A DNA stretch of 17,347 bases from the IMG/VR virus record IMGVR_UViG_3300045988_161160; one strand, written 5' to 3'. Source of the DNA: a virus. Both the position numbers and the translations under genes were made by a program. The notes beneath the pieces were generated by a model. It was not told the DNA's origin, did not search any database, and saw nothing but the letters and a program-made list of their open reading frames with translations. Below are positions 594 to 17,347 of this stretch, piece by piece (the first letter of the stretch is position 1; every line of letters begins with the position of its first letter).

Positions 594-656
594 ATGACAT
601 CAACATTTATATTACTTATTTCATTATTCATTTTATCAATTACAATCTTTAATTAA
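594..656 (+). CDS. Mini-ORF encoding a 20-aa wholly hydrophobic peptide (MTSTFILLISLFILSITIFN)
   Basis: SD AAGGAT (582-587) then ATG 594, 3 nt after the previous stop; TAA at 654-656. Could be a single-pass membrane peptide or a regulatory leader. Confidence 0.3.
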   Translation: MTSTFILLISLFILSITIFN

Positions 657-666
657 CTAGTCATAT

Positions 667-691
667 CAGGGTTCGATTCCCTGTTATGATA
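667..691 (+). other. tRNA 3'-half-like element: T-arm (CAGGG-TTCGATT-CCCTG) followed by a 7-nt acceptor-like strand and a discriminator-like A. No D or anticodon arm upstream.
   Basis: GGTTCGATTCC is a near-canonical TpsiC motif inside a perfect 5-bp stem. Manual search upstream found no complementary 5' acceptor strand and no anticodon stem. Confidence 0.35.
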
Positions 692-852
692 TAAGGCTAG
701 TAATAAAAAAATAAAAAATAGAAAGTTGGCCTATGATGAACATTCACTAGTCGGTGTTCTAGGACTCTAAATTTTAACTTCTGGAAATGGCTCATTAAAA
801 TTCAGAAGATTCGCGGATAGACTATTGGGAACAGTCGTTTTCGCAAAAGACA

Positions 853-885
853 AGGCTTGACATTGTCAAGTCTTTTTTATATAAT
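853..885 (+). promoter_or_regulatory. Terminator/promoter couplet. Hairpin AGGCTTGAC-att-GTCAAGTCT plus T6 (853-878) overlaps a perfect promoter TTGACA(857-862)-N17-TATAAT(880-885), the likely late-operon promoter.
   Basis: 9-bp stem (one G-U) followed by TTTTTT. The -35 lies in the hairpin and the -10 directly after the T-tract. The first late gene starts at 971. Confidence 0.6.
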
Positions 886-17117: not shown

Positions 17118-17147
17118 ATTATAGCAGACTGAGTTTGCTTTTGTCTA
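17118..17147 (-). promoter_or_regulatory. Right-ITR copy of P2 (TGcTATAAT) immediately upstream of the 140-aa gene
   Basis: Identical ITR sequence. SD AGAGGT precedes ATG 17105. Confidence 0.5.
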
Positions 17148-17229
17148 GTAAAAAATGGTTGAAAATGTTTTCTGAAAACAGTTTCATAAGTTTGTTAACC
17201 GTGTTGCTAATGAAAGCTTGTTTTCATTG

Positions 17230-17257
17230 ATTATACATATTAATTAACAAATGTCAA
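17230..17257 (-). promoter_or_regulatory. Right-ITR copy of P1 (TTGACA-N16-TATAAT) directing leftward early transcription
   Basis: Identical ITR sequence on the opposite strand. Confidence 0.6.
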
Positions 17258-17347
17258 GATGAAAATGTTTCCAATTGTTTACAGATAGTTACATGAAAGG
17301 GGGGATAGGGAGAAAAAAACGATATGGGGTAGAATGCGAATATTCAG

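Follow-up and report, generated by a model that had tools for sequence, protein, structure and literature searches.

The 17,347-bp DNA of the IMG/VR record IMGVR_UViG_3300045988_161160 (the window, i.e., the whole stretch that was analysed) is a complete linear genome, as seen from perfect inverted terminal repeats (ITRs) of 213 bp at its two ends (positions 1–213 and 17135–17347), and belongs to a C1-like streptococcal podovirus. Downstream of the last coding gene of its left early operon, at 660–692, lies a tRNA-like element (TLE) of minihelix type which reproduces the top half of a tRNA, and at whose 3′ end begins a conserved structured RNA, here called module C, with its core at 691–774 (both on the plus strand, as are all features given below for the window). 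Comparison with other phages places this TLE in an undescribed family of phage elements that mimic the tRNA top half and border conserved small-RNA modules in phages of the Streptococcus bovis/equinus complex. The family is defined by a 7-bp acceptor stem, a connector of 0 or 10–14 nt, a canonical T-arm, a purine discriminator followed by U, the lack of an encoded CCA, a location on the sense strand of the early transcript, and a position bordering a conserved non-coding module on its 5′ side; the window copy has all of these features. The leading explanation, to which we give about even odds, is that host RNase P and RNase Z cut at the TLE, which would release a small RNA of ~185 nt ending at the early terminator.

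The window TLE is made up of a 5′ acceptor strand GTCATAT (660–666) that directly abuts the T-stem, a perfect 5-bp T-stem CAGGG/CCCTG (667–671/679–683) closing the T-loop TTCGATT (672–678), a 3′ acceptor strand TTATGAT (684–690), the discriminator A691, and U692. The initial annotation, made from the sequence of the window, had placed a T-arm within the CAGGG/CCCTG stem (here located at 667–683), followed by a 7-nt acceptor-like strand and a discriminator-like A, and each of these is present. Its further statement that the element lacks a D-arm and an anticodon arm also stands—ARAGORN finds 0 canonical cloverleaf tRNA or transfer-messenger RNA (tmRNA) genes in the window and in 12 relatives—but the supposed absence of a 5′ acceptor strand does not, because 660–666 pair with 684–690 at six of seven positions (with a G1–U72 wobble and a U7–U66 mismatch). 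The element is therefore not an orphan 3′ half: positions 660–691 form a 12-bp (7+5) coaxial acceptor/T-arm minihelix without D-arm or anticodon arm.

Its T-arm has the hallmarks of tRNA genes (G53, T54 T55 C56 R57 A58, C61 and a 5-bp stem). The 11-mer GGTTCGATTCC (670–680), within the CAGGG/CCCTG stem, occurs exactly once in the window and would be expected 0.15 times in 17.3 kb even with one mismatch, which argues against a chance match, and many genuine phage tRNA genes (for Lys, Glu, Ala and others) have a T-arm that is the same as the 19-mer TCAGGGTTCGATTCCCTGT. The minihelix has a folding energy of −14.4 kcal/mol (z = −3.3; equalled by 0/200 shuffles), constitutes the most stable local structure besides the terminator, and scores 44.8 bits with the family covariance model R1, in addition to the covariation within the family. 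A search with this kind of model, filters off, found no second TLE copy in the window, and 641–900 shows no similarity to the rest of the genome. Neither a tRNA gene nor a known RNA family, the two checks proposed initially, was recovered: an Rfam scan of the window yielded nothing at the gathering threshold, with tRNA, packaging RNA (pRNA) and YrlA unmatched even at E ≤ 10, and weak matches to ncr1575 and BSnc120 driven by the terminator. Three further candidates were rejected. The 660–690 hairpin is not an intrinsic terminator, being followed by ATATAAGG instead of a T-run, and a terminator scan of the tract finds one at 852–874 only; a decayed protein gene in 641–900 was not supported by tblastn with the small open reading frames (ORFs) of relatives, which gave self and terminator matches only; and a tmRNA or YrlA tRNA-like domain is contradicted by the lack of an ARAGORN tmRNA and by Rfam, which matches neither the window nor the prophage arrays described below.

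Minihelices recur in closer relatives of the window, which were identified in ENA and Logan assemblies by their homologues of the two small flanking proteins. Two copies are found in L160 and three each in L162 and L163, all on the plus strand, downstream of the last early ORF and ahead of the terminator/promoter. Their acceptor stems are fully paired (7/7) and divergent in sequence (GTTATAT/ATATAAT, AGCTATG/CATGGTT, ACCCGTA/TGCGGGT), their T-stems covary (CAGGG, AAGGG, TAGGG, AACCG), and the middle copy of L162 carries an 11-nt connector, ATGGTATCTAG, between acceptor strand and T-stem, at the place of tRNA nucleotides 8–48. The T-arm conservation that the initial annotation looked for in related genomes thus exists, with covariation, in these closer relatives and in siphophages, but not in the relatives selected by capsid protein: no TLE is present in 12 IMG/VR genomes collected via this protein (L001–L012, 58–89% identity, phage C1 being L009), nor in pBovineB21 and pBovineS21, taken separately from GenBank. 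In L001–L005 and L011, those read here, protein genes extend to the same terminator/promoter, with no TLE between.

A wider distribution emerged from blastn searches with the L162 tract and then with the tract of prophage Javan207, which matched unannotated gaps of 0.4–1.2 kb in 22 GenBank phage or prophage records, whose hosts are all S. equinus, S. gallolyticus, S. infantarius, S. macedonicus or S. pasteurianus. These include temperate siphoviruses (Javan199, 207, 213, 214, 220, 231, 263, 288, 414 and others) as well as lytic S. equinus siphophages (PY1 and others). In every case the gap separates early or replication genes from a late regulator or terminase. These gaps contain TLE arrays, mostly with a 10–14-nt connector, which in the prophages are far from any ORF end. 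The TLE tract has no match in a plasmid collection.

A scanner requiring G53-TTCRANN-C61, a T-stem, an acceptor with at least 6/7 pairs and a connector of 0–16 nt retrieved 28 elements on the sense strand of 17 loci and 0 on the antisense strand, with 0.3 expected in shuffles. All loci together hold 43 distinct copies, nearly all on the transcribed strand and numbering 1 to 4 per phage. With 34 A and 9 G, their discriminator is always a purine; U (T in the DNA) follows it in 43/43, the trailer opening with TAA or TTA, and none of the 43 encodes CCA. A GG at the place of the D-loop G18G19 of the tRNA elbow, which it could mimic, is found in 32 of the 33 connector-bearing copies. Among 24 distinct copies, compensatory changes occur in 11 of the 12 pairs, and pairing extends to 94% of cells as opposed to at most 48% when the partners are slid, a percentage that is inflated because the scanner demanded the T-loop motif and at least 6/7 acceptor pairs; the invariance of G53–C61 and of T54 T55 C56 R57 A58 across copies is likewise partly scanner-imposed, the motif having been required. 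It is the strand asymmetry and the shuffle control that carry the argument; neither these nor the variety of pair types is built into the scanner. Even if the processing model set out below fails, this covariation shows selection on a tRNA top-half mimic in these phages.

Module C opens with UAAGGCUAG from 691, followed by an A-rich stretch, AGAAAG (720–725), CCUA (730–733) paired with UAGG (760–763), AUGAUG (733–738) and a hairpin with stem 738–744/753–759 and loop CACUAGUC. In the family the order is UAAGGCUAG, the A-rich stretch, AGAAAGnnGG, CUAUGAUGA, a hairpin with loop (C)CUAGUCG, then CUAGGAC. The covariance model R2 scores the window core at 96.6 bits and retrieves 25 copies in all, none of them in relatives lacking a TLE, and alifold identifies compensatory pairs. 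Across eight aligned phages, 5 of 13 pairs show compensatory changes. The covariation score of module C is reached by 0/500 shuffles, in an alignment that was model-fitted, which favours structure. The motif CUAG occurs three times in the window module, at 698–701, 747–750 and 759–762.

The association of the two elements was also assessed independently of the TLE, with 15 IMG/VR contigs retrieved by a pattern from module C only, and in 13 of these 15 a TLE ends exactly at the module C start. The module begins at the discriminator itself (A691 in the window), and on its 3′ side it is limited by the next TLE (L160, L162) or by the terminator (window). A scan between the early promoters and module C found no consensus promoter. 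Punctuation of tRNA type is the most economical reading of these borders. The initial annotation was correct that the tract lacks coding potential, as no ORF longer than 32 aa is present in 657–852. The tract is not empty, given the conserved structured module at 691–774.

Other conserved non-coding modules follow the TLEs of prophage arrays (L166 1815–2000, L167 1913–2100, L168 1077–1300 and L169 1383–1590). One of the prophage-array modules combines a trailer UAACC(C/A)GAAA with a hairpin GGAGGUG...CACUCCUUC, and another, 'module D' (AAAUAGAAAAGAGG...), occurs in prophage arrays and also in L135, L160 and L162. The prophage-array modules have no match in Rfam.

Processing by host tRNA-maturation enzymes is consistent with this anatomy and distribution. 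A single transcript would start at the early promoters in the terminal repeat and run through the small ORFs to the terminator at 852–878; the 12-bp acceptor/T-arm helix with its T-loop would be recognised by the maturation enzymes; RNase P would cut 5′ of G660, detaching the mRNA, and RNase Z between A691 and U692. These cuts would free the minihelix, which could then receive CCA, and an RNA of ~185 nt (692 to about 878) composed of module C and the terminator hairpin. While structure, selection, family membership and the coincidence of TLE ends with module C starts are observed, the cleavages, the CCA addition and the function of the released RNA are predictions from them. Among the roles considered in the initial annotation, that of a tRNA-like mimic on the early transcript, addressed to RNase P, RNase Z or the CCA-adding enzyme, is the one that anatomy and comparison favour most (7+5 bp, T-loop, purine–U junction, sense strand only, covariation).

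At the level of sequence, the TLE has the prerequisites of an RNase P/Z signal in its 12-bp helix, its T-loop, the lack of CCA and the U next to the discriminator. Its conserved features are those read by enzymes that handle the tRNA top half. The tRNA genes of Streptococcaceae are all CCA-less and RNase Z cuts right after the discriminator, with the trailer fragment of a mapped tRNA-Ala precursor starting with U (PMC8549757); lacking an encoded CCA, streptococcal tRNAs depend on RNase Z. The genuine tRNA-Lys of prophage Javan199 is likewise followed by TAA, and together with the invariant U after the TLE discriminator this fits RNase Z processing.

Several observations weigh against processing, besides the inflated pairing percentage. 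The window copy itself has the U7–U66 mismatch and the G1–U72 wobble, and pair 7:66 is unpaired in 15 of the 24 copies. RNase P normally also reads the D-loop/T-loop elbow and, in some bacteria, the 3′ CCA, and the connector-less copies have neither a D-loop elbow nor a 3′ CCA. The relative L135 carries at 551–583 a chimeric TLE whose acceptor stem is paired at only 2/7 positions, so an intact minihelix is not indispensable. Finally, the Shine–Dalgarno (SD)-like AGAAAG and the AUGAUG of module C might indicate a translational role instead.

This last possibility, in which module C acts in translation as a leader ORF of 4–5 codons or as a ribosome-binding decoy and the TLE merely travels along, is highly unlikely in our estimation. 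At 720–750 the window and seven other phages have an SD-like AGAAAG, AUGAUG and a stop 4–5 codons on in the hairpin loop, and in L171 the frame is broken. The near-invariance of AGAAAGnnGG, a spacing of 3–5 nt and AUGAUG, with UAG or UAA 4–5 codons later in 7 of 8 aligned phages, speaks for translation. However, the L171 loop is 1 nt shorter, so that the frame runs on, and the 'stop' belongs to the conserved CUAG motif; substitutions in codons 3–5 accompany those in the hairpin's 3′ arm, which marks RNA covariation and not peptide conservation; and the window offers no downstream gene to regulate, only a terminator.

Alternatively, the minihelix itself could be the effector, an abundant tRNA top-half decoy or sponge titrating a host reader of the acceptor/T-arm, with the modules between copies secondary. 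We regard this as unlikely, although it accounts for much of what is seen: the conserved parts (12 bp, T-loop, purine discriminator) are those that top-half-binding proteins read, a copy number of 1–4 per phage is what a dosage device would show, and TLEs are common to unrelated phages of one host clade. Candidate targets would be a defence nuclease cleaving tRNA tails or acceptors, a MenT/AbiE-type nucleotidyltransferase, RNase Z or the CCA-adding enzyme, and defences reading the acceptor stem, T-arm and CCA tail do exist, e.g., Cas12a3 (PMC12851939). Against a decoy, these hosts have no known candidate target, the acceptor sequences vary freely and so mimic no specific tRNA, the exact start of the module at the discriminator is left unexplained, and a broken acceptor stem is tolerated in L135.

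A purely cis-acting role, in which the hairpin, whether processed or not, shields the early mRNA from 3′ exonucleases at its 3′ end or uncouples it from read-through into the late operon and the tract serves as a spacer, is less probable still. The hairpin does begin 3 nt past the last stop codon and is, terminator apart, the most stable structure in its neighbourhood, yet a generic hairpin needs no invariant T-loop, no exact 7+5-bp geometry and no purine–U junction; the 'spacer' shows conservation and covariation of its own across unrelated phages, and the prophage arrays are remote from ORF ends.

The L135 chimera, which switches within the T-arm from the 5′ half of copy 1 to the 3′ half of copy 3, is a deletion via recombination between copies that destroys acceptor pairing. 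It shows the repeated T-arms to be recombination substrates through which modules are deleted or shuffled, and the window tract has similarly lost its last unit. Such recombination, together with the identity of the 19-mer to real phage tRNA T-arms, is what could be said for a decayed tRNA gene, a tRNA-derived attachment site or recombination scar, or a DNA palindrome without RNA function, a group of explanations to which we assign a very small probability. Neither 11/12 covarying pairs nor a strict strand bias would be expected of a scar, nor would the deletion of nucleotides 8–48 leaving an exact 12-bp helix in several independent sequence families, and the phage is a protein-primed lytic podovirus without integrase. 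Furthermore, GGTTCGATTCCCTGTTATGA is absent from 185,579 species genomes, JGI metagenomes and IMG/VR, and a 20-mer spanning T-arm and acceptor strand has no match in the 185,579 species genomes. The remnant of a recombination site envisaged in the initial annotation can thus be set aside, as none of these species genomes holds the exact T-arm plus acceptor strand and the copies are multiple, strand-specific and covarying. A host tRNA remnant was also rejected, a degenerate T-arm+acceptor pattern retrieving only ordinary tRNA-Leu genes and unrelated loci from IMG/VR, JGI metagenomes and GTDB.

Beyond the core, a long form of module C includes two hairpins, H2 (778–808), which is predicted and whose sequence is conserved in L160 and L162 with no clean compensatory change, and H3 (813–844), common to L160 and L162 with one compensatory pair and several one-sided changes. 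An H3-like sequence is found in Javan207 immediately before the third TLE. Taken alone, 692–851 folds no better than shuffles (z = −0.5), so the evidence for its structure is comparative, with no thermodynamic signal. The suggestion that the remaining tract is a small structured RNA is borne out by module C and the two hairpins, but its pRNA-like variant is not, in view of the missing Rfam match, the z-score and the absence from relatives. A phi29-type pRNA, to which we give next to no credence, would suit the phi29-like capsid, connector and encapsidation genes and the position of the tract near the left end. However, Rfam gives no pRNA match at E ≤ 10, 692–851 is no more stable than its shuffles, and the tract is missing from the 12 relatives with 58–89% identical capsids (C1 included) and from pBovineB21/S21 while present in siphophages that package with terminases (PMC11476376); an essential packaging RNA should show the opposite pattern, being kept in relatives and not in unrelated siphophages.

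As to what the released RNA would do under the processing model, the restriction to one host clade, the exchange between unrelated phages, the variable copy number and the gain and loss of modules suggest host-interaction cargo, and an anti-defence or host-takeover role is in our view the most likely. A more specific lead comes from L162, where positions 1043–1074 (the same in L163), between the first and second TLEs, hold GTTTTCGTACTCTTAAGATTTAAGCACCCGTA, which matches 27/32 positions of the S. thermophilus type II-A CRISPR1 (St1Cas9) repeat (repeat sequence from PMC3737339), with an alignment score of 39 against a maximum of 29 in 2000 shuffles (0/2000). This repeat unit is solitary and its 3′ end is the 5′ acceptor strand of the second TLE; it is a candidate viral mimic of a CRISPR RNA (crRNA) or of a small CRISPR-associated RNA (scaRNA). 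Cleavage by RNase Z and RNase P in L162 would yield a 13-nt tag joined to 25 nt of repeat, an RNA shaped like a short-guide crRNA.

No such St1 repeat mimic lies beside the TLEs at other loci or in the window, only in L162/L163, and the window scores 14 against the St1 repeat, with a shuffle mean of 14.6. The IMG/VR phage contigs L190, L191 and L195 show a promoter followed by one or two St1-type repeats, the last truncated into a terminator, and these mini-arrays or solitary repeats are without TLEs. Within the window, ATAAGGCTAGT (691–701) and AGTCGGTG (750–757) match the SpCas9 single-guide RNA (sgRNA) scaffold, but mimicry of a trans-activating crRNA or sgRNA is an unproven lead that we do not claim: the score is reached in 62/2000 shuffles (~3%), the matching segments are out of order relative to the scaffold, and no nexus stem can form. 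Tentatively, the non-coding tracts at the early/late junctions of S. bovis/equinus-complex phages may be RNA anti-defence islands, i.e., natural tRNA–guide RNA arrays diced by RNase P/Z into decoy or regulatory RNAs, including a short-guide Cas9 crRNA mimic in L162/L163 and module C in the window; an anti-defence role is suggested only indirectly.

Processing signals of tRNA type are known from organelles, mammalian nuclei and a herpesvirus, and an anticodon-less, arrayed phage version is new. In plant mitochondria, t-elements are tRNA-like acceptor/T-arm stem-loops in non-tRNA transcripts, used by RNase P/Z to make the ends of neighbouring RNAs. TLEs share with them an acceptor/T-arm-like structure embedded in a non-tRNA transcript, but t-elements are organellar, single and mRNA-adjacent with demonstrated cleavage, whereas TLEs are phage-borne and arrayed, bound conserved small RNAs and have a cleavage that is predicted. 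In the mascRNA (MALAT1-associated small cytoplasmic RNA) of MALAT1, its MEN-beta counterpart and the tRNA–microRNA-encoded RNAs (TMERs) of murine gammaherpesvirus-68, the tRNA-like part is split off by tRNase Z/RNase P, receives CCA and is not aminoacylated. Here too a tRNA-like structure is linked in cis to another functional RNA; however, these RNAs are eukaryotic and cloverleaf-like with an analogue of the anticodon arm, the TMERs being RNA polymerase III units, while TLEs are bacterial, lack an anticodon arm and have 0–14 nt in place of nucleotides 8–48. The phi80 M3 RNA, the precursor of the P1/P7 C4 antisense RNA and the YrlA Y RNAs are small RNAs matured or recognised via acceptor-stem/T-arm mimicry, and like TLEs they are bacterial or phage RNAs, but they are single elements of other sequence families, and the window has neither an Rfam match nor a Ro/Rsr context.

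Engineered polycistronic tRNA–guide RNA (tRNA–gRNA) arrays have the same succession of tRNA-like unit, RNA module and tRNA-like unit with release by RNase P/Z, although they are man-made and use full tRNAs, the natural case being unproven and the window lacking anything repeat-like between elements. Phage non-coding mimics of host CRISPR RNAs, found in streptococcal prophages, comprise the RNA anti-CRISPRs (Racr), viral sgRNAs and viral scaRNAs (PMC10651486; 10.64898/2026.06.01.729453). The 27/32 match of L162/L163 to the CRISPR1 repeat resembles the viral scaRNAs and sgRNAs of the 2026 preprint, whereas module C of the window has no significant similarity to a repeat or scaffold, and a word search of the Racr paper (PMC10651486) and of the preprint (10.64898/2026.06.01.729453) finds no mention of tRNA-like elements.

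If the processing model holds, TLEs would represent a compact, portable 31-nt RNA-processing signal of phages of Gram-positive cocci and a natural precedent for engineered tRNA–gRNA arrays. Module C and its neighbours would form a new phage small-RNA family exchanged among podoviruses and temperate and lytic siphoviruses within one host clade, an exchange typical of counter-defence cargo, and the unannotated gaps of several hundred bases in at least 22 GenBank Streptococcus phage records would be dense in RNA genes.

Among GenBank phages, the window is closest to pBovineB21 and pBovineS21 of S. equinus, with which part of its genome shares ~77% identity. The phi29-like gene map includes capsid, connector and encapsidation genes of phi29-like type and a polymerase of the protein-primed type, and the phage is a protein-primed lytic podovirus without integrase. 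Two early promoters at 91–118 and 201–230 (12/12 and 11/12 consensus matches), both within the 213-bp ITR, are the sole strong promoters upstream of the TLE; because they sit inside the terminal repeat, the right genome end bears the same early promoters. Rightward from them follow three small ORFs (243–413, 438–590 and 594–656). The products of the first two have homologues 73–92% identical in other podoviruses, sometimes in the right-end operon, and others (75% DNA identity) in the S. pasteurianus siphophages SG586P1/P3, and they obtain no annotation from PHROGs or from the precomputed Pfam domains of homologous clusters.

The third, a hydrophobic mini-ORF of 20 aa (594–656), is the final coding gene of the left early operon and ends with its stop codon 3 nt ahead of the minihelix. 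It had been noted initially as adjoining the element and is real, the peptide being conserved in L004, L005, L135, L160 and L162; it is not part of the TLE, since in L160 the stop codon of a different gene overlaps the minihelix. The ORF-free tract (657–852) is closed by the strong intrinsic terminator anticipated in the initial annotation, with a stem at 852–874 and a T-run to ~878. The terminator hairpin embeds the −35 box of the structural-operon promoter, a perfect sigma-70-type consensus (TTGACA at 857–862, a 17-nt spacer, TATAAT at 880–885), and the structural operon begins at 971. The same terminator/promoter fusion is kept in L002–L005, L011, L135, L160 and L162. The relatives without the element (L002–L005, L011) have in common a structural-operon leader of ~100 nt after the late promoter, with TAGTACAATATTAAAACATAATTAAGTAACACATGAT, from which the window leader (886–960) differs. 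Between the capsid gene and the next gene of the window, a hairpin at 2794–2822 weakly matches the minihelix model (15.1 bits, E ~0.1); without a T-loop motif, it is probably an ordinary intergenic hairpin.

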